A stretch of DNA of 64,000 nt, from NCBI GenBank assembly GCA_963771175.1, contig CAVYSY010000022.1:32001-96000 (forward strand). The letters run 5' to 3'. A program made the translations under genes and the position numbers. A model generated the notes under the pieces. The model saw nothing but the letters and a program-made list of their open reading frames with translations. It was not told the DNA's origin and searched no databases. Position 1 is the stretch's first letter. Every line of letters starts with the position of its first letter. This DNA comes from an uncultured delta proteobacterium (GTDB lineage Bacteria > Myxococcota > Myxococcia > Myxococcales > Myxococcaceae). Below, piece after piece: positions 39,924-52,422 of the stretch.

Positions 39924-40040
39924 GCCAGCTCGGGTCGCGGCGCGCCCTGTCCGTTCCCAGTGAACTCCGGCCCTGAAAAGACCCGCCACACGGCCCGGGT
40001 GGCCCTATGCTTCCGCCGCCACAGCGAAAGGTGGATGCAC

Positions 40041-40745
40041 ATGCGATTGGGAGTGTTGGCGGCAGTACTGCTCGGCCTCGCCGGGCTGCAGGCACGGGCG
40101 CAGCAGGCGCAGGGACAGGCGCAGCTCAAGACCGAGGAAGACAAGGCGTTCTACGCGCTCGGACTGTCGATCGGGCGGAGCATCAAGGTCTTCGACCTGA
40201 GCCCGGCGGAGATCGAGCTCGTCAGGAAGGGCATGACGGACTCGCTCACCAACGCGAAGCCGGCGGTGGAGCTGGATAAGTACGGGCCCAAGCTGCAGGA
40301 GATCGCCAAGGCCCGGCAGGGGAAGATGGGCCAGAAGTTCCTGGAGGAGGCCGGTAAGGAGAAGGGGGCCGTCAAGCTGCCCTCGGGGGTCGTCTACAAG
40401 GAGCTGAAGGCCGGCACCGGCCCGAGCCCCAAGGCCACCGACACGGTGAAGGTGAACTACCGCGGCACGCTCACCAACGGCGTCGAGTTCGACAGCTCCT
40501 ACAAGCGCGGCGAGCCCATCGAGTTCCCCCTCAACGGAGTCATCCCCTGCTGGACCGAGGGCGTGCAGAAGATGAAGGTGGGCGGCAAGGCCCAGCTCGT
40601 TTGCCCCTCCAAGACGGCCTACGGTGAGTCGGGCTCGCCTCCGACGATTCCTCCCGATGCCACCCTGGTGTTCGAGGTCGAACTGCTCGGCATCGGTGGC
40701 CAGGGCGCGGATGTCCCGCGCGCGCAGCCGGGTCAGAAGAAGTAG
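40041..40745 (+). CDS. FKBP-type peptidyl-prolyl cis-trans isomerase (FkpA/Mip-like)
   Basis: Signal peptide, YALGLSIG, VNYRGTLTNGVEFDSSY, VIPCWTEG and TLVFEVELL. Confidence 0.95.
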   Translation: MRLGVLAAVLLGLAGLQARAQQAQGQAQLKTEEDKAFYALGLSIGRSIKVFDLSPAEIELVRKGMTDSLTNAKPAVELDKYGPKLQEIAKARQGKMGQKFLEEAGKEKGAVKLPSGVVYKELKAGTGPSPKATDTVKVNYRGTLTNGVEFDSSYKRGEPIEFPLNGVIPCWTEGVQKMKVGGKAQLVCPSKTAYGESGSPPTIPPDATLVFEVELLGIGGQGADVPRAQPGQKK

Positions 40746-40817
40746 ACGTTCCAGGTGCGCCGGGGTGGGGGAGGGACGCGCGAACGGGCCCTCACCCCGG
40801 CCCCGAGCGAGGGCTGC

Positions 40818-41604
40818 TCACAGCCCCGACAGGAAGCTGTCGAGCACCGCGTTGAACTTCTCCGGCTGCTCCTGGTTGGGCAGGTGGGCCGCGTCCGGAA
40901 TCACCTCCAGCCGCGCTCCGGTGATGAGGTCCGCCATCTGCTTCGCCTTCTCCAGCGGCGTCACCGGATCCTTCTCGCCCACCACCACCAGCGCGGGCCC
41001 GGCGTAGCGCGCGAGGATGTCCTTGCTGTCCGGCCGTAGCGCCATGCCCCGCTGCGCCGCGGCGATCCCCGCCGGAGTCGCCGTCCGCATCAGCGCCGCC
41101 ACCTCGCGCCCCACCTCCGAGTCCGGCCCCGCCGCCACCACCTTCGGCAGCAGCGCCCGCACCGCGGACTCGGGCCCCTCCCGCCAGCGCCTCCTGGGCC
41201 GAGGCCTCCCGCCGCGCCCGTCCCGCCTCGTCGTCCGCCGTGGCCTGCGTGTCCACCAGCACCAGCCCCCGCACGCGCCCCGCGTCCTCCCGCAGCAGCG
41301 CCATGGTGGCGTACCCGCCCATGGACACCCCGCCCACCACCGCCGACTCCACGTTCAGCGCGTCCAGCAGCGCCAGCGCGTCCCGGGCGATGCGCGACAT
41401 CTCCGTGGCACCCTCCTCGCCCAGCCCGCTCCGACCGAAGCCCCGGATGTCCGGGATGATGAAGCGGTAGCGCCCCGACAGCGCCTTCACCTGCTTCTCG
41501 TAGGCGTCCCCGTTCAGCGGAAACGCGTGGAACAGCAGCACCGGCAGCCCTCGACCCTCGTCGCGGTAGTGCAGGGGAACGCCATCGACGGTGATGGTGA
41601 GCAT
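40818..41604 (-). CDS. Alpha/beta hydrolase (PcaD-like); frameshift near 41175
   Basis: LFHAFPL, PDIRGFGRS, GVSMGG, VGEKDPVTP and AAHLPNQEQP. Confidence 0.88.
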
Positions 41605-41621
41605 GGGCTCCTCCAGGAGTT

Positions 41622-42566
41622 TCAGATCCACTGCTTTCGCCGGAACCAGAACATCAGTGCCACCGGCAGTCCGAATACCGAGAACATCATCAGCCAGAAG
41701 AACTCTCTGCGGCCCAGCAGCTCGAAGTTCTGTCCGAAGAAGCCCGTGATGAAGGACAGGGGCAGGAAGATGGTGGCGAAGATGGTGAGCTGCTTGGTGA
41801 TGTCGTTCGTCCGGTTGGCCATCATGGACAGGTAGCCATCCATCACGTTGCCCAACAGGTCGCGCCCCGAGTCGATCTGCTCGTACAGCCGCACCAGGTG
41901 GTCATACACGTCGCGGAAGTACAGCGCCGTGCGCTCCTGCACGTTGGGGATGCCCCTCCGGGAGAGGAAGCCCAGCACGTCCCGCTGGGGCGACAGCACC
42001 CGCCGCAGCTCCACCAGCGCCCGCTTCATGGCGAAGATGCGCTGCAGGTACTCCGACTTCGGATTCGCGAAGATGGCCGATTCCAGGTCCTCCAACTCAT
42101 CGTTGAAGTGATCGAGGACGGGGAAGTTCCGGTCCACCAGCGCGTCCGCCAGCAGGTACAGCAGGAAGTCCACCCCGCGCCCCATCGTCACCCGCGGCTC
42201 GTCCGGCACCCGCTTCCTCACCGCCTCCAGTCCTTCGAAGGGCAGCTCGTGGACCGAGATGAGCCAGTTCGGCCCCAGGAAGAAGTGGTGCTCGTGCAGT
42301 GTCAGGTCGCACACGTCCTGATCGTTGGACGTGAAACCCTGGAGCACGATGAACTGGTGGTTCGGGTACTCCTCCAGCTTGGGCCGCTGATCCAGGTGCA
42401 GGCTGTCCTCGATGGCCAGCCGGTGCAGTTCGTAGCGCTCCCCGAGCTGCTTCATCTCCTCCTCCGTGGGGTGGAGGACGTCGATCCACTTGGGGCCGGG
42501 CTGGTCGAGCAGCTCCTCGCCACCGGAGAGGAGTTTGTCTTCATTAAGGATCAGAACCTGGATCAT
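41622..42566 (-). CDS. corA: Magnesium/cobalt transporter CorA
   Basis: WIDV..PT, HRLAIED, QRPKLEEY, LYFRDVYDH and LTIFATIFLPLSFITGFFGQNF. Confidence 0.93.
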   Translation of the reverse strand: MIQVLILNEDKLLSGGEELLDQPGPKWIDVLHPTEEEMKQLGERYELHRLAIEDSLHLDQRPKLEEYPNHQFIVLQGFTSNDQDVCDLTLHEHHFFLGPNWLISVHELPFEGLEAVRKRVPDEPRVTMGRGVDFLLYLLADALVDRNFPVLDHFNDELEDLESAIFANPKSEYLQRIFAMKRALVELRRVLSPQRDVLGFLSRRGIPNVQERTALYFRDVYDHLVRLYEQIDSGRDLLGNVMDGYLSMMANRTNDITKQLTIFATIFLPLSFITGFFGQNFELLGRREFFWLMMFSVFGLPVALMFWFRRKQWI

Positions 42567-42668
42567 GCGGGCGCGAGCTTGGATCGCACCCTCCCTGATG
42601 TCGAGCACGCTGCAGCGGACGAGAGAGAGCCGCGACGCGACGTGACGGACCCGCTAGAGTGGGGGGCC

Positions 42669-43835
42669 GTGTCCGACGCTACTCCTCCACTCGCCCTTTC
42701 CCCCAGGCTCGAAGAGCTCCTTCAATCCCTGGCCGATCGCGCTTTCGGCGAGCGCCTGCGACAGGTGTACACCGCCGCGGGACAGGCCACCCTCCGGCTG
42801 AGCGACCTCGATCTGTTGAAGTACGAGAGCGCCAGCGTGGACGACAGCCCGGACCTGTCGCTCTGGGAGGAGATGGCCCCCGTCATCCGCGACACGGTGA
42901 TGGACGTCAACGTGCTCCTCAACGTCATCCGCGAGCAGTTCGTGGTGAAGGCGTCGAGTGTGTCGGGCGGCGCCGGGGCCCCCCTGGCCGCCACCGTGGA
43001 TGCGCGGCGGGCCAAGGACGCGTCCGAGCTCCTCCAGGGGTGGATGCAGCAGCTCGCCCAGGGCGTCACCCAGCTCGGCGAGGTGATGCGCAACCCCGCA
43101 GTCGTGTCGGACCGGTGGATGCTGCTGTCGGAGATCCAGCGGCTGCGCGAGCGCTTCCGCGAGCAGATCGGCAACCTCGTCTTCGAGTCCGCCAGTGCCT
43201 TCGGGCCGGTGACGCGGCAGCAGGTGGTGCCCGGCCACGAGGCGGAGGTGAAGGCGGCGGTGATGGTGCGGGCCATCGTGGCGGACCTGTCGCGCATCAT
43301 CGAGGCGCGGCTGAACAAGGTGCGCGAGGCCGAGCCCGAGGACGTGCAGTGGAACTCGCAGCAGTTCCAGACGGAGTTGGACGCGTTCGGCCGCACCGCC
43401 GCCTACAAGCATCTGCGTGCCCAGGACAAGCGGCAGATCATCGAGGTTCGCGGTCGGGTAGGGCGGCTGGCCATCCAGGACAATCCCAGCAAGCAGGACG
43501 TGCTGGCCGTGGTGGAGGAGCTGCACGCCTTCGTGAGCTCGCTCGCCAAGGAGAACCAGCATCAGGTGCTCATCACCCATGATCGCGAGGTGTGGGCGGG
43601 CTGCGGGGTTCGGTTGGAGCGGGCCCTGGGGCTGCTGGGCTCGGACCCGGTGACGGCGGCGCGGGGCCTGGCCGAGGCGGCCGCCAGCGCCCAGTCCCTC
43701 TACGGTCGCGACGCCCGACTCGATGCCTTCCTACGCAAGGCGCGCAAGCAGCAGCTCACCCAGCTCTCCGGCCCCGAGCTGCGCTCCTCCCTCGAGCTCC
43801 TCCAGTCGCTGCTGGCCGGACTCGACATGATGTGA
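42669..43835 (+). CDS. Hypothetical all-helical protein
   Basis: The 3' part of ORF 41898 (GTG start at 42669) has coding-like GC3 and a natural protein composition. The 5' part of that ORF is antisense to corA. Confidence 0.72.
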   Translation: MSDATPPLALSPRLEELLQSLADRAFGERLRQVYTAAGQATLRLSDLDLLKYESASVDDSPDLSLWEEMAPVIRDTVMDVNVLLNVIREQFVVKASSVSGGAGAPLAATVDARRAKDASELLQGWMQQLAQGVTQLGEVMRNPAVVSDRWMLLSEIQRLRERFREQIGNLVFESASAFGPVTRQQVVPGHEAEVKAAVMVRAIVADLSRIIEARLNKVREAEPEDVQWNSQQFQTELDAFGRTAAYKHLRAQDKRQIIEVRGRVGRLAIQDNPSKQDVLAVVEELHAFVSSLAKENQHQVLITHDREVWAGCGVRLERALGLLGSDPVTAARGLAEAAASAQSLYGRDARLDAFLRKARKQQLTQLSGPELRSSLELLQSLLAGLDMM

Positions 43836-43836
43836 G

Positions 43837-46125
43837 TCACCGTCCCGGCGGGTTCCGGGCCGCGCGCCGGGTGGGACTCCGACGCGCCCCTCCGCCCGGC
43901 AGGAGGACCTGCCTGGCCTGGGGTGAGTCGCCCCCCAGGTCCAGATCGCGGAGCCACATCGCCGGGAGGAAGTCCGGGTCGTTGTAGAGGGCCAGCAACT
44001 CCTTGGGCTCCACCGGACCGAGCCGGCTGGTCGCGAGCCTCGTCCCGCCGCCCTCCTTCCAGGTGCTTTCCCAGAGCAGGGAGAGGACGAGCGCGCCCCG
44101 CGCCATGCAATCGCACGTCCGCTCCCCCAGCACCTCCCACATGTGCGGGATGCGCCGGCGCCCGGACTCGGCGTTGTAGGCCTCGATGATTTCCAGGGGC
44201 GGGAGCGTGTCGATCGTGGTCCCCATGAGCTGGACGACGGCATCCGCCGCCGCCGCTCCGCCCCGCACCGTCCGCGTGACGCGCTTTCCCTTCACGCGCG
44301 CGTTCACGCCTTCGATCAGCTCCGCCGCCCGCTGGTCCAGCATTCGCGTCTCGTAGACCGAGTGGACGTCCTCCTCTTCGGGATGGCCGGGCCGTCCATG
44401 GTGCAGGAACGAGACGTGGAGGGGCTGACACGCATCCCCCACGTAGTGGGCGAGGATGCCGGCGGCACACACGAACTCGGACACCTGTGTGTTCTGGAGG
44501 AAGCCGACCATCGCCTCGTAGATCTGCCAGACGCGGAACGGCAGCGCGCCCCGGCTGCTGTTCGCCTTTACCCCGATGCTCTCGTAGAACTCGCCCCAGA
44601 CCTGGGGAGTGCGGCTGGAGCGATCGGTCCGCCACACGTCGAGCAGGGTCCTTCCCTCGAACGGGCCCGTTCCCGGCTGGTCCATGTCGGCGAAGTGGTT
44701 GGCCGCGTCGCGCTTCCGGGTGGTGCGCCACACCAGGTCCGCCACGTCCGCGAGCGCGACGAAGTTCTGGGTGTCGTTGCCGGGCAGCTCGCCGTTGGCG
44801 ATGGCCTCATCACTGACCGCGATGCGATCCGCGTTGGCCTTGAGCAGGCGGGAGAGCTTCGCGTTCGAGGCGAGCCCGCAGGCCGTGATGCCCACTTTGT
44901 AGTGGCCCACCTTGCCCCAGTACTCGCTGAGCCCGATGTCCCAGTCCCGGACGAGCTCGATGTCCAGCGTGCGGCAGATGGAGCTCAGGCTGCTGGCGAG
45001 CGCGAACGAGTAGACCTCTCCGCCGCCGGGAGTCATCAAATTGTGGCCACCCCACTGCAGGGCGATGGGCCGCCATTGCCGGGCCCGGGCGCGGGTCGGC
45101 GCCTCGTCCCCGGCGCCCGACTTCGGCTCGAAGACCCAGACGGTGCCCGAGTCTCCCGGCCGGGTGGGCAGGACCTCCTGCCCCTCTCGCGCGCCGATCA
45201 ACAGGTCGGCCACGTAGTCGAAGCCCCCCAGGGACTGGTAGCGGTAGAAGAGCCCGTGGATCTCCCCCTCGAGCGTCCCCGAGGCGGCGCCGAAGGCACG
45301 CACGTGGCAGCCGATGAGATCCAGCGAGAGGGTGTCGCTGTTGAGGTCCACGAGGGGACCGAGCTCGCCCACGCCGAACACCTGGGCCGTCCAGCCCCAC
45401 ACGTCCTCGAGCCGGACGAGGCCCGCGTCGAGGTTGGAGTAGGTGCGGCTCCCGGGCAAGCCCGGGTACGCCTCCGCGAAGGGGAGCTTGCCCACCTGGC
45501 GCGCATCGCTGGTGCCCACCCGTTGGCGCTCGCCGCGGACGAGCGTGTAGACCTCGCGACCCTGCTCGCCCACGACGTGCCGGTTGGTGAGGGCATAGAC
45601 GGTGTCGCCATCCGTGACGAGACAGCCGAAGGAGCCGACGTGCGCGCGCCCCTGGACGTCCGTGAGCGCCGGGTAGCCTCCGCCGACCAGTTCGGTGGGG
45701 AAGGTGAGCTGTTGCAGGGGGGGCGGGGCCTGCTCCTGTCGCTCGGCGAGCATGACGCAGGTGGGTACGACCCGCCCGTCCGGCAGGTAGAGCAGGGGGG
45801 GCACGAGCTGCTCGGGATTCCGGGCGATGTCCTCCGGCGTCATCCAGTGGTCCACGAACACCAGCACGCATGGCCAGGACCAGCGACGGACCACCGTGTT
45901 GCCGAGCGTCTTGGGCGTCGAGCTCCTCCGCCCGGGCGTGGCATAGGGGTTCTCCGCGTTCTCGTCCTCGCGGCGGATCCGGTAGCGCCCGATGGCCGTC
46001 GCCACCACGGTGTCCAGGTGGGCGAGGTGCACGTGATACGCCTCGCGTGCCTCCAGCAAATCCTTGATCGACAGCGAGCTGAAGTCCCTCGTCGTCGGCA
46101 GCCCGTTCTTCGCCATGGCATCCAC
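43837..46125 (-). CDS. Trypsin-like serine protease fused to S1/P1 nuclease / zinc PLC-like domain
   Basis: Protease motifs GSFGCLV, ALTNRHV (H183), NLDAGL (D233) and PGDSGT (S326). Nuclease/PLC motifs WGKVGH (W403), ADVAD, NHFADMD, GALP, LAHYVGDACQPLH and VHSVYE. No signal peptide. Confidence 0.8.
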   Translation of the reverse strand: MDAMAKNGLPTTRDFSSLSIKDLLEAREAYHVHLAHLDTVVATAIGRYRIRREDENAENPYATPGRRSSTPKTLGNTVVRRWSWPCVLVFVDHWMTPEDIARNPEQLVPPLLYLPDGRVVPTCVMLAERQEQAPPPLQQLTFPTELVGGGYPALTDVQGRAHVGSFGCLVTDGDTVYALTNRHVVGEQGREVYTLVRGERQRVGTSDARQVGKLPFAEAYPGLPGSRTYSNLDAGLVRLEDVWGWTAQVFGVGELGPLVDLNSDTLSLDLIGCHVRAFGAASGTLEGEIHGLFYRYQSLGGFDYVADLLIGAREGQEVLPTRPGDSGTVWVFEPKSGAGDEAPTRARARQWRPIALQWGGHNLMTPGGGEVYSFALASSLSSICRTLDIELVRDWDIGLSEYWGKVGHYKVGITACGLASNAKLSRLLKANADRIAVSDEAIANGELPGNDTQNFVALADVADLVWRTTRKRDAANHFADMDQPGTGPFEGRTLLDVWRTDRSSRTPQVWGEFYESIGVKANSSRGALPFRVWQIYEAMVGFLQNTQVSEFVCAAGILAHYVGDACQPLHVSFLHHGRPGHPEEEDVHSVYETRMLDQRAAELIEGVNARVKGKRVTRTVRGGAAAADAVVQLMGTTIDTLPPLEIIEAYNAESGRRRIPHMWEVLGERTCDCMARGALVLSLLWESTWKEGGGTRLATSRLGPVEPKELLALYNDPDFLPAMWLRDLDLGGDSPQARQVLLPGGGARRSPTRRAARNPPGR

Positions 46126-46180
46126 CCCCGCGGATCAGTGCCAGAGGGAGTGGCGCGAGGCGGGGATGTGACGTGCCGGC

Positions 46181-47470
46181 CTACGGGGCGCTCGTGGGTT
46201 CGACCTCCAGGGCGGCAGGAGGGGAGGCGAGCACCTCGCGGGCCCTCTCCACGTCCAGGCCGCCCTCCCACTTGGACACCACCAGGGTGGCCACCGCGTT
46301 GCCCACGAGGTTGGTGAGGGCACGCGCCTCGGACATGAACCGATCCACCCCGAGCAGCAGCACCATCCCCGCCACGGGAATCTTCCCGGTGGCGGAGAGG
46401 GTCGCCGCGAGCGTGATGAAGCCTCCGCCCGTGACGGCCGCGGCGCCCTTGGAGGTGAGCAGCAGCACCGCGAGCAGCGCGAGCTCCTCGCCCAGGGTGA
46501 TGGGAGTCCCCGTGGCCTGGGCCACGAAGAGCGAAGCGAGCGTGAGGTAGATGGACGTGCCGTCCAGGTTGAACGAGTAGCCCATGGGCACCACGAGCCC
46601 CACCACGCTCTGGGGGCACCCCAGCGCCTCGAGCTTCACCAGCATGCGGGGCAGGGCGGACTCGGAGGAGGAGGTGCCCAGCACGAGCAGCATCTCGTCG
46701 CGCAGGTAGCGCAGGAGCGGCAGCAGGCCCACGCCCGTCCAACGCACGATGGGCCCGAGCACGAGCGCCACGAAGAGGAACGCGGTGGCGTAGAAGGTAC
46801 CCATCAACCGGCCCAGGCCAAGCAGCGTGCCCACGCCGTACTTGCCCACGGTGAAGGCGATGGCGCCGAGCGCTCCCAGGGGCGCCAGCCGCATGATGAT
46901 GCCCACCATGCCGAAGAGCAGGTGGCCGACGCTGTCCAGGGCCTTCAGGATGCCCTCGCCCGCCTTCCCCATCTTCGAGAGCGCCACGCTGGTGAGCAGC
47001 GCCACGAGGAGGATCTGCAGGATGTCCCCCTTGGCGAACGGATCCACCAGGGAGGAGGGGATGATGCCGAGCAGGAAGTCCACCGTGGACATCGACTTGC
47101 CGGCGGTCGTGTAGCTCTCGAGGGCCTTGGCATCCAATCGGGACACGTCCACGTCCAGGCCGGCGCCGGGCTGGAACACCTCGCCCACCAGCAGGCCCAG
47201 CAGGAGCGCGCCCGTGGTGACGACCTCGAAGTAGAGGAAGGCCTTGAGCCCCACTCTCCCCACGCGCTTGAGGTCTCCCATCTTGGCGATGCCCGTCACC
47301 ACCGTGGTGAACACCACCGGGGCCACCAGCATCTTGATGAGTCGGATGAACCCGTCGCCGAGCGGCTTGAGCGCTTCGCCGCCGTGGGGCCAGAAGTGTC
47401 CGAGCAATGCTCCGAACACCACCGCCACCAGCACCTGCAAGTAGAGATTCTTGAGCCAGCCGAGCCGCAT
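46181..47470 (-). CDS. dctA: C4-dicarboxylate transporter DctA
   Basis: [50 protein letters not shown] and [14 protein letters not shown]. Confidence 0.95.
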
Positions 47471-47851
47471 GGCGCGCGACTCTACCCCGCTCGGGGCACC
47501 CGGAATTGATTTGTGGCCAAATGATGGGATTGCAGATGATTGCGGGACAAACCATATAAATCCAGGTCAGCCCAGAGAGGCTCGGGAGCTGTCATAAAAC
47601 AGGACACCCCCCGTCCTGAAACAGGACACTTCGCGGGAGAGGTGTCAACGTCTTGAAGACAGACGGATTCTGCCAGGGGCTGTAAATACACACTACATTC
47701 CTGGGCCCGCGAATCGTGACATCCATGTTCCACCGTGCTGGCTGGATGATTGGTAAAGGCCGGTATTTCCATGGTTCATGGGTTGGCCCGATCCCTGCTT
47801 AAGGGTTGAGTGCCCGACGGCACCTCGCCGTTGGCCAGGAGGAACCCCCCC

Positions 47852-49693
47852 TTGGTTCGCACTCGCTTCCTTGCTGCCGCGCTGCTCGCCCTTCCCCTCG
47901 CCGCTTGCGAGGTTGACAACTCCCAGGTTGCCCCGGGCGCCGAGAAGGTCGACGACCTCGGTGACGTCCGTGCGGCCCTCGCCGCGCTGCCGTCCGCCGA
48001 GATCGCCGGCGCTCACGGAGACGGCGTGCCCTTCATGCTGAAGGGCAAGCTGGGCTCGGTTGACGCCGTCGCCCCCGCGTTCCGCCTGAACGCCACCGAC
48101 CTGGTGCTGAAGCGCACCACGGTGGACGAGGAGGGCAACACCCACACCCGCTACGGCCAGCTGAAGAACGGCCTGCCCGTCATCGGCGGCGAGATCATCC
48201 TCCACGAGAACAAGGACGGCAGCGTCTATCTGGCCAACGGCTCGGCGCGTGACGGGGAGATCGCCCCCGCCAAGGCCCGCGTCGCCCCGGAGGCCGCCAA
48301 GGCCGCCGCCCTGGACAGCACCTCGGGCCGCCACATCGCCGCCGAGGGCGAGCCCCGCCTGGTGTACGTCCGCAAGGACGAGGGTGCGCTGCAGCTGGCC
48401 TACGAGGTGGTGGTGACGGGCGAGGGCCTGGACCTGCCCATCCGTGACCACGTGTACGTGAGCGCGCTGACCGGCCAGGAGATCGACCGCACCACGGAGA
48501 TCCACTCCGCCCTCAACCGCGCGGTGTACTCGGCCAACAACGGCACCACGCTGCCCGGCACGATCAAGCGCTCCGAGGGTGGCGCGGTCACCGGTGACAC
48601 CCACGTGGACGACAACTACACCCACCTGGGCACCACCTATCAGTGCTACTACACGAACTTCGCGCGTGACTCGTACAACGCCGCGGGCGCGCAGCTGAAG
48701 AGCTCGGTGCACTACAGCAGCAGCTACACCAACGCCTTCTGGAACGGCACCCAGATGGTGTACGGCGACAGCGATGGCGTGCAGTCCGCGCCGCTGGGCA
48801 AGTCGCTGGACGTGACGGTGCACGAGCTGACGCACGCCGTCACCTCCTCCGAGTCCAACCTCACCTACTCCAACGAGTCCGGCGCCCTCAACGAGGGCAT
48901 GAGCGACATCTTCTCCGCCTACTGCGAGTCCTGGAAGCTGGGCTGGGCCGTTCCCGCTTCGGTGTGGATGATCGGCGACGACGTGTGGACGCCGAACACC
49001 GCGGGTGACGCGCTCCGCTACATGGCCAACCCGACGCAGGACGGCTCGTCGAAGGACTACTACCCGACGCGCTACACGGGCACCTCCGACAACGGCGGCG
49101 TGCACTGGAACTCGGGCATCGCCAACCTGGCGTTCAAGCTCCTGTCCACGGGCGGCACGCACCCCCGCGGCAAGACCACCATCAACGTGACGGGCATCGG
49201 CATCCAGAAGGCCGGCGCCATCTTCTACCGCGCCAACCGCGACCTCTTCACGGCCTCCACCACCTTCGCCCAGGCGAAGACCTACACGCAGACGGCCGCC
49301 GAGCAGCTCTACGGCACCGGCGCGGCGGAGAAGACCTCCGTCGACCAGGCCTGGCAGGCGGTGGGCGTGGGCGTGTCGGCTCCCTCCACGGCGCTGACCA
49401 ACGGCGTGGCCCTCACCGGCCAGTCCGGCTCCACGGGCGCCGAGAAGCACTACTACCTGGACGTGCCGGCCTCCAAGGCGGTGTCCTTCGTGATGAGCGG
49501 CGGCACGGGTGACGCGGACATGTACGTGAAGTTCGGCGCGCAGCCCACCACCACCTCGTACGACTGCCGTCCGTACCTCTCCGGCAACGCCGAGACGTGC
49601 AGCATCGCGGCGAAGACCACGGCCGGTCGCTACAACGTGATGCTCCGCGCCTACAGCACCTACTCGGGCGTCTCGATCAAGGGCACCTACTAG
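47852..49693 (+). CDS. M4 family (thermolysin-like) metalloprotease lipoprotein with FTP/PepSY propeptide and C-terminal PPC domain
   Basis: AGGAGG RBS before TTG at 47852; lipobox LAAC; NAFWNG, HELTH, GALNEGMSD, GVHWNSGIAN and GTGDADMYV..G..PT...YDCRP. Confidence 0.93.
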   Translation: MVRTRFLAAALLALPLAACEVDNSQVAPGAEKVDDLGDVRAALAALPSAEIAGAHGDGVPFMLKGKLGSVDAVAPAFRLNATDLVLKRTTVDEEGNTHTRYGQLKNGLPVIGGEIILHENKDGSVYLANGSARDGEIAPAKARVAPEAAKAAALDSTSGRHIAAEGEPRLVYVRKDEGALQLAYEVVVTGEGLDLPIRDHVYVSALTGQEIDRTTEIHSALNRAVYSANNGTTLPGTIKRSEGGAVTGDTHVDDNYTHLGTTYQCYYTNFARDSYNAAGAQLKSSVHYSSSYTNAFWNGTQMVYGDSDGVQSAPLGKSLDVTVHELTHAVTSSESNLTYSNESGALNEGMSDIFSAYCESWKLGWAVPASVWMIGDDVWTPNTAGDALRYMANPTQDGSSKDYYPTRYTGTSDNGGVHWNSGIANLAFKLLSTGGTHPRGKTTINVTGIGIQKAGAIFYRANRDLFTASTTFAQAKTYTQTAAEQLYGTGAAEKTSVDQAWQAVGVGVSAPSTALTNGVALTGQSGSTGAEKHYYLDVPASKAVSFVMSGGTGDADMYVKFGAQPTTTSYDCRPYLSGNAETCSIAAKTTAGRYNVMLRAYSTYSGVSIKGTY

Positions 49694-50495: not shown

Positions 50496-50885
50496 ATGAA
50501 CGTCCGTGAGGTAGTCGACCGGTATTACGCCACCGTCAATTCGGGGGATTGGGACTCCTGGCTGGAGCTCTTCGACGAGCACCTCGTCATGGATGAGCAG
50601 CTCGGCGGCCACATCGAGGGCATCGAGACGCTGCGCGGCCTCGTGGGGGGTCTGAAGCGCATCTACGCGTCCTTCCAGAACACGCCCCGGCACACCGTCA
50701 TCGACGGCAACCAGGCCTGCGTGGTGTCTCGCATCACGGCGGTGACCCCCCGGGGCGAGCCCATCGAGGCCGAGGTCGCCAACTACTTCCTCATCCAGGA
50801 GGGACGAATCATCTACATGGCGAACTTCCACGACAGCCGCCCGTTTGATCCCGCCTTCAGTCCGCGGGGTGGGGAGGGGGCCTGA
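50496..50885 (+). CDS. SnoaL/NTF2-like protein
   Basis: VVDRYY..VNSGDWDSWLELF...G.IEG...F.I.EGRI...NFHD pattern. Confidence 0.8.
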   Translation: MNVREVVDRYYATVNSGDWDSWLELFDEHLVMDEQLGGHIEGIETLRGLVGGLKRIYASFQNTPRHTVIDGNQACVVSRITAVTPRGEPIEAEVANYFLIQEGRIIYMANFHDSRPFDPAFSPRGGEGA

Positions 50886-50886
50886 G

Positions 50887-52422
50887 ATGGAAGCTCATGA
50901 CTTCATCGTGGTGGGTGCCGGCTCGGCGGGAGCGGTCATCGCCAGCCGCCTGAGCGAGAACCCCGAGGTCCGGGTGCTGCTGCTGGAGGCGGGAGGCGCC
51001 GGGACCCCGGAGGACGTCTCCAATCCCTCGGCGTGGCCCCGCCTGCTCGGCTCGTCCATCGACTGGGGCTACACCAGCGTGCCCCAGGCGGCACTCGGGG
51101 AGCGGGTCATCCACGAGCCGCGCGGCAAGCTGCTCGGCGGCAGCAGCAACCTCTACATCATGATGCACGTCCGCGGTCACCCCTCGGACTATGACAACTG
51201 GGCCTACCAGGGGTGCCCCGGCTGGTCCTTCCAGGACGTGCTGCCCTACTTCCAGAAGCTGGAGGACCAGGAGGACGACACCAACCCCTGGGCTGGCCGT
51301 GGCGGACCGCTGCCAGTGACCAACGCGAAGCACCACGGGCCGAACCCCACCTCGCAGGCGTTCCTCGATGCGTGCCGGGAGCTGGGCTATCCCGAGACCG
51401 ACGACTTCAACGGCCCCCAGATGGAGGGGGCCGGCTGGCACCACGTCAACATCAAGGATGGCAAACGTCACAGCGTCGCCGAGGCGTATCTGCGACCGGC
51501 GCTGGCTCGGCCCAACCTCACGGTGGTGACGAATGCCCAGGCCACCCGGCTGCTCTTCCGGCACCAGCGCTGCGTCGGCGTGGAGTACCACCGCGAGGGC
51601 AGGCTCGAGAGCGCACACGCCACGGGGGAGGTGATCGTGGCGTGCGGGGCGATCGAGTCACCCAAGCTGCTCCTGCTGTCTGGGATTGGCGATCCCGAGC
51701 AGCTCTGGCCGCTCGACATCCGCGTGCACGCGGCCCTGCCCGGGGTGGGGGAGAACTTCCACAACCACGTGCTGACCGGGGTGATCCGTGAGTGCACCCG
51801 GCCCGTGCCCGCCCGCCCGGCTCAACCTCTCCGAGTCCGCCCTGTTCCACAGGTCCTCTCCGGGCTGGCCCGGCCCCGATCTGCAGATCGCCTTCGTCCA
51901 CGTGCCCTTCGACATCATCGTCGGTCAGGGGCATCCGAACGCGATCAGCATCCTGCCTGGCGTGGTGCGACCGTTGTCGCGCGGCTCGGTCCGTCTGGCC
52001 AGCGCCAATCCCCTGGACAAGCCACTCGTGGATCCCGAACTACCTGTCGGTCGAGGCGGATCTGACACGCCTGATGCAGGGGGTGGAGATCGCCCGGGAG
52101 CTCTTCGCCACGCGGGCATTCTCCGAGTGGGTGGGTTCCGAGCTGAAGCCCGGCCCCGGGGTCAGGACCCGACGAGGAGCTCCGGGCCTTCGTCAGACAG
52201 ACCGCCGACTCGTACCACCACCAGGCCGGCTCCTGCCGGATGGGGCTCGATGCGATGGCGGTCGTGGATCCCCGGCTGCGAGTCCATGGCGTCGAGGGAC
52301 TGCGCGTGGCGGACGCCAGCGTGATGCCAGCCGTCCCCTCCGGCAATTGCCATACGGGCATCGTCATGATCGCCGAGCGGTGCGCCGACATGCTCCTGGC
52401 CGATCACGGCCTCCGGGGTTGA
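50887..52422 (+). CDS. GMC family FAD oxidoreductase (frameshifts near 51810, 52035, 52170)
   Basis: DFIVVGAGSAG, LLEAGG, PRGKLLGGSS, GAIESPKLLLLSGIG, GVGENFHNH, YHHQAGSCRMG and VADASVMP.VPSGN. Confidence 0.92.

Follow-up and report, generated by a model that had tools for sequence, protein, structure and literature searches.

A candidate self-activating fusion of a NAL1-type serine protease with a P1 nuclease/phospholipase C-type phosphoesterase in a myxobacterium

Enzymes with the fold of the P1/S1 nucleases and zinc phospholipases C (PLCs) begin at a tryptophan, and the free amine and carbonyl of this Trp1 hold the third zinc. In this study, we have analysed a window of 64,000 nucleotides from an uncultured delta proteobacterium of the Myxococcaceae (assembly GCA_963771175.1, contig CAVYSY010000022.1, positions 32,001 to 96,000) and, within it, one gene on the minus strand (43837..46125; 762 codons plus stop, GTG start at 46123-46125) which encodes the ligand tryptophan of such a domain as residue 403 of 762, behind a serine protease of the type of rice NAL1, so that the encoded chain, unlike those of the superfamily, does not start at this Trp. 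Several described systems come close. The PLC of Bacillus cereus is made with a short propeptide, and PC-PLC of Listeria likewise. In Listeria, PC-PLC is an inactive proenzyme from which the protease Mpl cuts off a 26-residue propeptide; any residue ahead of W1, even a single one, abolishes activity, and W1 substitutions other than W1F significantly lower it (PMC10576769, in the portion of its text available), which documents the premise of the first-pass annotation of this DNA that an extension ahead of Trp1 inactivates. Rice NAL1 is composed of an N-terminal, a structural ATP-binding and a serine-protease domain, requires assembly into a D3 hexameric cage for activity and has plant transcription regulators as its substrates (PMC12012508, in the available portion). 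Finally, latent effectors gated by a protease are an established logic in bacteria (10.1101/2025.07.28.667249 and PMC12642450, as far as their available text goes).

The best explanation that we can offer for the gene in the window is a self-activating zymogen, which we hold with about as much belief as doubt. In this model, a NAL1-type protease and a trinuclear-zinc phosphoesterase would be made together as one cytoplasmic chain, with the phosphoesterase inactive at synthesis because its Trp is internal, with 402 residues ahead of it, and the fold needs a free Trp amine. The fused protease would cut between Y402 and W403, in cis or between the subunits of a NAL1-like oligomer, into fragments of 44 kDa and 39.5 kDa; the freed amine of Trp403 would complete the third zinc site, and the active enzyme would hydrolyse phosphodiester bonds, in nucleic acid or in phospholipid. 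We infer the cut, the agent that makes it and its constitutive or triggered mode; our starting points are the folds, the catalytic residues, their conservation together and a rigid junction, to which we turn now. Taken as a whole, the first-pass annotation, which had proposed a one-gene switch of this kind, is partly supported.

The two halves of the fusion protein and their joint conservation

Judged from a predicted structure and from sequence profiles, residues 1-400 are a NAL1-type serine protease whose putative triad is His183 (codon 45577-45579), Asp233 (45427-45429) and Ser326 (45148-45150; these and all further parts of the gene are on the minus strand). The full-length AlphaFold2 model, built with 120 homologues, has a predicted local distance difference test score (pLDDT) of 89.2 and a predicted template-modelling score (pTM) of 0.85. 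When searched with Foldseek against the PDB, residues 1 to about 400 match rice NAL1 over some 400 columns (E 2e-20, target TM-score 0.67-0.80), followed by alpha-lytic- and SGPB-type proteases at E values of about 1e-7. The family sequence profile also reaches rice NAL1 (E 1.2e-10) and pairs the motifs TNRH (residues 180-183), LDAG (232-235) and GDSG (324-327) with NAL1's TNHH, aDGA and GDSG; the alignment starts only at residue ~84, with the ATP-contacting residues out of reach. PF25819 is present in the precomputed annotation of most of the relatives listed.

Foldseek, profile and conservation together place the chymotrypsin-fold domain at about residues 146-392 (44950..45690), whereas the region before it, about residues 15-140 (45706..46083), corresponds in Foldseek to the part of NAL1 that precedes the protease domain, namely its N-terminal and ATP-binding domains. 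The N-terminal ~140 residues, which had been taken for a sensor, therefore appear to be part of the NAL1 architecture and no unknown sensor; Pfam, NCBIfam and PADLOC scans of the window protein revealed no sensor domain of the STAND, Hachiman, Lamassu, DRT or similar kinds, and there is no conserved neighbour. The likeness to rice NAL1 (PDB 7Y77, 8HAU, 8PMM; Pfam NAL1_N/Nal1_C) probably extends to an additional module ahead of the chymotrypsin-fold domain, and both proteins lack a signal peptide. Unlike the window protein, however, rice NAL1 has no P1/PLC-type domain behind its protease, and identity between the two is only ~20%. Standalone NAL1-like proteins of 300-410 residues are common in bacteria. 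In the viral structure library BFVD, the proteins A0A0N9MU75 (318 residues, E 1e-11) and A0A7S9XDX3 (449 residues, E 1e-9) resemble the NAL1-like module plus protease; no protein in that library matched the two-domain arrangement, the remaining matches being generic 3C/trypsin folds.

Predicted structure and sequence both assign residues 403-733 (43927..44919) to the P1/S1-nuclease/zinc-PLC fold, as an all-helical, putative trinuclear-zinc phosphoesterase domain that is followed by a basic, poorly conserved tail (residues 734-762, 43840..43926; pLDDT below 50-56). Modelled separately, residues 403-762 are all-helical, with pLDDT 93 and pTM 0.91. The first 33 Foldseek matches all belong to the P1/S1 nucleases or zinc PLCs (probability 0.99-1.00, with later matches below 0.2) and include SmNuc1, S1, AtBFN2, TBN1, P1, the B. 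cereus and Listeria PC-PLCs and alpha-toxin N-domains. When the profile of the domain was compared with PDB sequences, 11 of 11 matches fell in the same superfamily, for which its neighbours in the protein atlas are also named; some relatives carry PF02265 or PF00882 in their precomputed annotation, and an NCBIfam scan of the window protein returned no match.

The zinc site argues in the same direction. SmNuc1 holds three zincs through Trp27 (by its N-terminal main chain), H32, D71, H88, H141, D145, H151, H175 and D179 (PMC11705217, available portion). Counterparts of all nine can be found, as predicted zinc ligands paired with SmNuc1 by order and local spacing and partly by alignment, in W403 (44917-44919), H408 (44902-44904), D463 (44737-44739), H477 (44695-44697), H560 (44446-44448), D564 (44434-44436), H570 (44416-44418), H588 (44362-44364) and E592 (44350-44352), within the motifs YWGKVGH (402-408), HFAD (477-480), HYVGDACQPLH (560-570) and HSVYE (588-592). 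The local spacings H-x3-D-x5-H and H-x3-D/E are the same as in SmNuc1. The final ligand is Glu, not Asp, in 132 of 138 members, and HSVYE aligns with HSKYE of B. cereus PLC, in which the ligand is also Glu. H477-F-A-D resembles the H-[Y/F]-x-[N/D] of the SmNuc1 nucleoside site (His88, Tyr89, Asn91), in a mapping by spacing only.

Likeness to the S1/P1 nucleases (P1 1AK0, S1 5FB9, SmNuc1 8QJL, AtBFN2, TBN1) lies in the best Foldseek E values (5e-4 to 6e-3), the all-helical fold and the nine ligand positions, and likeness to the zinc PLCs (B. cereus 1AH7, Listeria 8CQM, the clostridial alpha-toxin N-domain) in the best TM-scores (0.65-0.69). The S1/P1 nucleases are secreted, disulfide-bonded proteins of 245-270 residues in which Trp comes first after removal of the signal peptide, whereas the domain in the window is one of ~330 residues, cytoplasmic, with an internal Trp and Glu as its last ligand. 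Foldseek ranking, motifs and protein atlas did not discriminate between nuclease and phospholipase C, and the domain is best regarded as a third superfamily branch.

At 70% GC, a long open reading frame (ORF) is by itself weak proof of a gene. Nevertheless, the 762-codon ORF is a real gene and no chance ORF, because its GC content by codon position (0.69/0.49/0.92) matches the pattern of neighbouring known genes, including transporter genes. In the opposite-strand ORFs at 44143..46317 (plus strand, 724 residues) and 42654-43580 (minus strand, 308 residues), GC is highest at codon position 1 and not at 3, and we therefore regard both as shadow ORFs of a high-GC genome. An alternative start, the ATG at codon 4 (46114-46116), has a G-rich stretch 5' of it, and the database representative of the protein (P0002, 759 residues) begins there, so that the GTG is possibly three codons too early; our numbering follows the GTG, and the ATG would shift it by -3. 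The N-terminus has no hydrophobic or transmembrane-like segment by hydropathy (maximum 19-residue Kyte-Doolittle mean 1.2; no dedicated signal-peptide predictor was run), and across the family it is a conserved helix, confidently folded in the model. Much of what the first-pass annotation had read from the letters is therefore confirmed: the intact ORF, for which it had omitted the minus strand; the motifs, all of which lie at the residues it gave; the lack of a signal peptide; the chymotrypsin-fold triad, by the Foldseek and profile matches to NAL1 and by conservation; and the P1/PLC-type domain from residue 403, by structural matches confined to that superfamily.

The fusion family is old and widespread. 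A search with the whole protein found 1590 database proteins at E<=0.001, of which the best 120 matches align over 90-100% of the query with identities of 51-78% (P0002, the record of the window protein itself at 100% identity, was excluded from the alignment); the nearest relatives are Archangium proteins at 74-79% identity. A pattern scan with one genome per species gave 344 relatives, that is, at least 344 species, mostly from soil phyla. From these, 80 were kept as loci, in 12 named bacterial phyla plus one Nitrososphaerota metagenome-assembled genome (MAG): 29 in Acidobacteriota, 16 in Pseudomonadota, nine in Chloroflexota, seven in Myxococcota, five in Gemmatimonadota and fewer in the others. 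When cluster representatives were searched with the profile of the C-terminal domain, 2454 matched at E<=0.001, of which 371 reach E<=1e-30. Database names of members are 'hypothetical protein' or 'S1/P1 Nuclease', and our literature searches found no description of the protease-phosphoesterase fusion, several early ones being too loose to inform.

A few members stand out on their own account. A full-length homologue at 51% identity lies at 219-2423 of a Nitrososphaeraceae archaeon MAG contig (5160 bp, GC 0.40), which is either a cross-domain transfer or a binning error. Ktedonobacter sp. SOSP1-85 has two copies of the gene on separate contigs (L020 and L043). Apparently decayed copies are one match stretched to 3395 bp with an interrupted ORF (L019), one truncated at 491 residues (L023), and the matches on Neorhizobium and Sinorhizobium replicons (plasmid hits H2 and H5), in four and two pieces, respectively.

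Because each search selects on a part of the protein, we read conservation crosswise, scoring each half in the set that was found through the other half. Among 66 full-length representatives picked via the C-terminal domain (W-G-x-x-G-H motif, more than 650 residues; Trp and the first His are not independent there), His183 and Ser326 are present in 66/66 and Asp233 in 65/66. Conversely, in 75 genome copies found via N-terminal and protease patterns (where the Ser is not independent), Trp403 and His408 are present in 75/75, and other ligands are missing solely in truncated copies and in one degenerate locus, L044 (H560N, D564G). The triad and the zinc-ligand residues, W403 included, are invariant in the 120 best database matches. 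Homologues without the catalytic Ser or the Trp/His ligands, which had been named as the finding that would speak against the proposal, were thus not what we found: the two sets of residues are conserved together. In addition, of the 107 representatives that carry the W motif, 84 have GDSG upstream; the remainder are nearly all fragments in which the end of the protease is still present. Standalone C-terminal domains are rare (~4/107, plus P0239 of Leifsonia sp. 2TAF2, 362 residues), and larger fused forms were looked for among the relatives and not found, which is weak evidence.

Trp403, the junction and the proposed cut

The junction between the halves, residues 376-403 (44917..45000), is of fixed length and ends at the proposed scissile bond between Tyr402 (44920-44922) and Trp403. 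From residue 376 to Trp403 there are 27 residues in 72/72 full-length members, whereas other segments vary by up to ~30, and the junction is modelled with pLDDT 81-89. Among 138 members, residue 402 is Tyr in 99, Thr in 20, Phe in seven, Ser in six, Arg in three, Ile in two and Val in one. Of the pattern (Y/F)-W-G-x-x-G-H that the first-pass annotation had singled out, the Trp and the His are invariant, but an aromatic residue at 402 is found in only 106/138. The variation at 402 may have a counterpart in the protease: Gly360 occurs together with aromatic residues at 402, and a larger residue in its place with small ones (contingency 102/27/5/4). In tree-independent pairs (n=6), from a tree built without the tested columns, the change at 402 and 360 takes the same direction in 3.4 cases on average and the opposite direction in 0. 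Thr321 has a trend like that of Gly360, and three control positions have none. We regard this covariation, seen in sequences, as a lead and no proof.

A number of observations weigh against a self-cut. The covariation is non-significant after tree correction (median p 0.25 over the six pairs), because the test is underpowered; an earlier strict scan for alignment columns that change along with residue 402 (Y or T) found none; and the places of residues 321 and 360 in the S1 pocket, which we take to be those of chymotrypsin 190 and 217, are mapped from the GDSG and WGG motifs. Residue 402 itself is non-uniform, and a single type of pocket would not take all its variants. That the junction is ordered and confidently modelled is as compatible with a permanent, rigid coupling as with a scissile bond positioned in advance. 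The window protein also stays below the curated Pfam cut-offs for all three families (Nal1_C 25.7 bits against 26.1, S1-P1_nuclease 21.0 against 29.5, Zn_dep_PLPC 15.8 against 26.8). Finally, three standalone C-terminal domains (P0239, P0363 and P0371) have 4-16 residues before the Trp, lack a signal-like segment and are attached to no protease; either another protease serves such standalone domains or the free amine is not always required.

Several of these points lead to a serious, if unlikely, alternative, in which no cleavage occurs and the protein is an intact two-domain enzyme or cage, with Trp403 contributing its carbonyl and side chain only. In one variant of this idea the C-terminal domain works with a modified site of two or three zincs; in another it has become a substrate-binding or regulatory cap for the NAL1-like protease, which would act on other proteins. 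A length-invariant, ordered and confidently modelled junction is what a permanent rigid interface would have; the chemical variability of residue 402 and the natural standalone forms with short leaders ahead of the Trp fit as well, and rice NAL1 acts on other proteins within its hexameric cage (PMC12012508, available portion). On the other hand, nearly all members keep the nine ligand positions intact, W403 and H408 of the third zinc site among them, which points to a catalytically complete site, whereas a regulatory domain should shed ligands in some lineages and only the degenerate L044 does. Moreover, one extra residue before W1 abolishes the activity of Listeria PC-PLC (PMC10576769, available portion).

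The standalone domains also bear on a further possibility, that the phosphoesterase is a latent effector activated by another protease or signal, the fused protease having different substrates and the two domains being co-delivered. Precedents with separate proteases exist, Mpl for Listeria PC-PLC (PMC10576769) and the HamA- and Avs-fused proteases that act on metallo-beta-lactamase (MBL) nucleases (10.1101/2025.07.28.667249), each in the text available. We nevertheless consider this very improbable: there is no recurrent neighbouring protease or partner gene, the fusion with an intact triad is near-universal among relatives of the C-terminal domain, and the length of the junction is fixed. 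The self-activating zymogen is the reading with which we continue.

Genomic surroundings and cellular role

In the window, the fusion gene lies 55 bp downstream of a gene for an SDF/DctA-type transporter on the same strand (46181-47470, minus), and on its other side is a convergent hypothetical gene on the plus strand (~42.6-43.8 kb, ending at 43835). The stop codons of the two convergent genes are 1 nt apart, and a search for a terminator-like hairpin between them found none. The hypothetical gene has no Pfam match, encodes 387 residues in Archangium relatives and is conserved within Archangium only. The first-pass annotation had named both neighbours correctly, to which we add the convergent orientation of the hypothetical gene. 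Further out are genes for an FKBP-type isomerase (39960-40745, plus), an alpha/beta hydrolase (40792-41631, minus), a CorA magnesium transporter (41622-42608, minus), a metallopeptidase of the thermolysin type (M4) that has an FTP propeptide motif as well as a PPC domain and is likely secreted (47810-49693, plus), and a GMC oxidoreductase (50845-52065, plus). In other Archangium genomes the M4 gene directly flanks the homologue and the DctA-type gene is absent there.

The gene had also been proposed to be an accessory insertion. It is syntenic in four Archangium loci (L001, L002, L004 and L005), which share the downstream hypothetical gene and the M4 gene, and its GC content is that of its flanks; we therefore rule out a recent insertion. 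An enrichment in defence islands, which had been suggested as a check, is likewise not borne out. In an all-against-all comparison of ORFs within 7 kb over the 80 loci and the window, the most recurrent neighbour family occurs in at most 8/81 loci, and neighbour orientation is random (36/36 upstream, 37/35 downstream). According to Pfam, 141 of the 154 immediate neighbours, those other than 13 from L074-L080, are housekeeping genes of mixed function (metabolism, transport, regulation), among which are one integrase and one transposase. PADLOC, run on 140 neighbours from 20 loci, gave 14 matches, nearly all to generic ATPase, kinase or regulator domains, with one methyltransferase and one RecD-like helicase as the only possible defence genes (without a formal background rate). 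With no recurrent partner, housekeeping neighbours and generic PADLOC matches, we rejected the defence-island reading.

Mobile elements were also searched. The family was found in 0/50,697 phage records and in 5/72,556 plasmid records, all five of at least 387 kb (megaplasmids or chromids). The surroundings of a copy on a Ralstonia megaplasmid are ordinary. The copy on the conjugative Sphingobium fuliginis plasmid p1 (L081, 4792-14080) lies in a mobile, defence-like region, flanked on one side by a ParDE toxin-antitoxin pair and an anti-phage dGTPase and on the other by a gene with a CYTH domain and a Tn7-like set of TniQ, TniB and transposase. This locus and one PADLOC-DB model are the only links to defence. 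The model, PDLC03017 ('trypsin-like'), matches the window protein at E 4e-29 and 17 of 17 diverse members, six of them in a single stretch across both domains, and therefore represents the same two-domain architecture. Its best match is L076 (E 1.6e-60, profile positions 11-576 of 611), and L040, L055 and L065 reach ~609; unlike the window protein, the model is shorter, at 611 positions, and it fits a side branch better. Database look-ups did not identify the defence system behind it. A role in defence or abortive infection is possible and weakly supported.

Such surroundings invite the view that the cut is a constitutive, one-shot maturation, with no sensor switch, of an enzyme with an ordinary, non-toxic role in turnover or scavenging of nucleotides, RNA or lipids. 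Here the protease would exist only for making the N-terminal Trp, because neither signal peptidase nor methionine aminopeptidase can supply it in the cytoplasm; the latter leaves Met in place before Trp. By analogy, the alphavirus capsid protease generates its own C-terminus, and the fixed-length junction suits a pre-organised cut in cis. The varied housekeeping neighbours, the lack of a partner, antitoxin or immunity gene, the Archangium synteny with native GC, and the phage and plasmid counts fit as well. A NAL1-like module of 400 residues with a conserved N-terminal part, however, exceeds the needs of a single cut, and since standalone NAL1-like proteases are common in bacteria, the protease probably has a regulated activity of its own. 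The patchy spread over 12 bacterial phyla and one archaeal MAG, which is typical of accessory functions, and the existence of a homologous PADLOC model also speak against it, and we think one-shot maturation unlikely.

At the other end of the range, the gene could be a sensor-less, one-gene switch for cell suicide or stress, which we judge decidedly unlikely. An idle NAL1-like cage protease, of a lineage that would be a bacterial relative of plant NAL1 and possibly nucleotide-binding, would respond to a cellular cue (phage infection, nucleotide depletion or oligomerisation, for example) with a self-cut at 402|403 that unleashes the nuclease or PLC inside the cell. ClpS recognises N-terminal Trp. 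The new N-terminus could thus act as a bacterial N-degron, a built-in timer for the activated enzyme.

The identity of the host raises one more alternative, that the protein is a hydrolase which a myxobacterium exports for predation or scavenging, with non-classical release (in vesicles or by lysis) and maturation outside the cell. The host is Archangium-like, with 78% identity to proteins of Archangium, the gene of a probably secreted M4 metalloprotease is nearby, and all characterised P1/S1/PLC enzymes are secreted (PMC11705217 and PMC10576769, available portions). Against this, hydropathy finds no signal peptide or hydrophobic segment, the N-terminus of the family is a conserved folded element, and the majority of hosts are not predators (Acidobacteriota, rhizobia, Ktedonobacteria). 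We regard export as extremely improbable, and return to the cytoplasmic zymogen.

Comparison with protease-activated systems

The family is large and entirely uncharacterised, and the hypothesis is unusually sharp, as it hinges on one bond, one serine and one N-terminal residue. If the self-cut is true, this would be the first described P1/PLC-type enzyme to gain its N-terminal Trp in the cytoplasm via its own protease, and the recently recognised protease-gated effectors of bacteria would gain both a further effector fold and a single-chain format. If there is no cut, the question becomes how a PLC/P1 zinc site works with an internal Trp. The agronomically important plant protease NAL1 also gains bacterial relatives with a readable partner domain.

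Among described systems, the Mpl-PlcB pair of Listeria is alike in that an enzyme is inactive until a protease removes what precedes W1, as we propose for Trp403. The differences are clear: in Listeria, Mpl is a separate secreted metalloprotease that removes 26 residues, and activation takes place outside the cytoplasm (both as given in the available text of PMC10576769), whereas here the place of the propeptide is taken by a serine protease of 402 residues within one chain with the enzyme. [quoted passage not shown] These modules, as the available text of 10.1101/2025.07.28.667249 and PMC12642450 describes them, consist of two genes, have the protease fused to a sensor (STAND, Hachiman, Lamassu, DRT), lie in defence loci and use other effector folds; a PLC/P1-fold effector is not among the effector families in that text, and the supplementary tables may list more. 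The window protein differs from them in being one polypeptide, with no defence context and with an effector of PLC/P1 fold. In conclusion, the fusion would combine two known kinds, a zymogen of the zinc-PLC type and a protease-gated effector, in one cytoplasmic chain with a NAL1-type protease.

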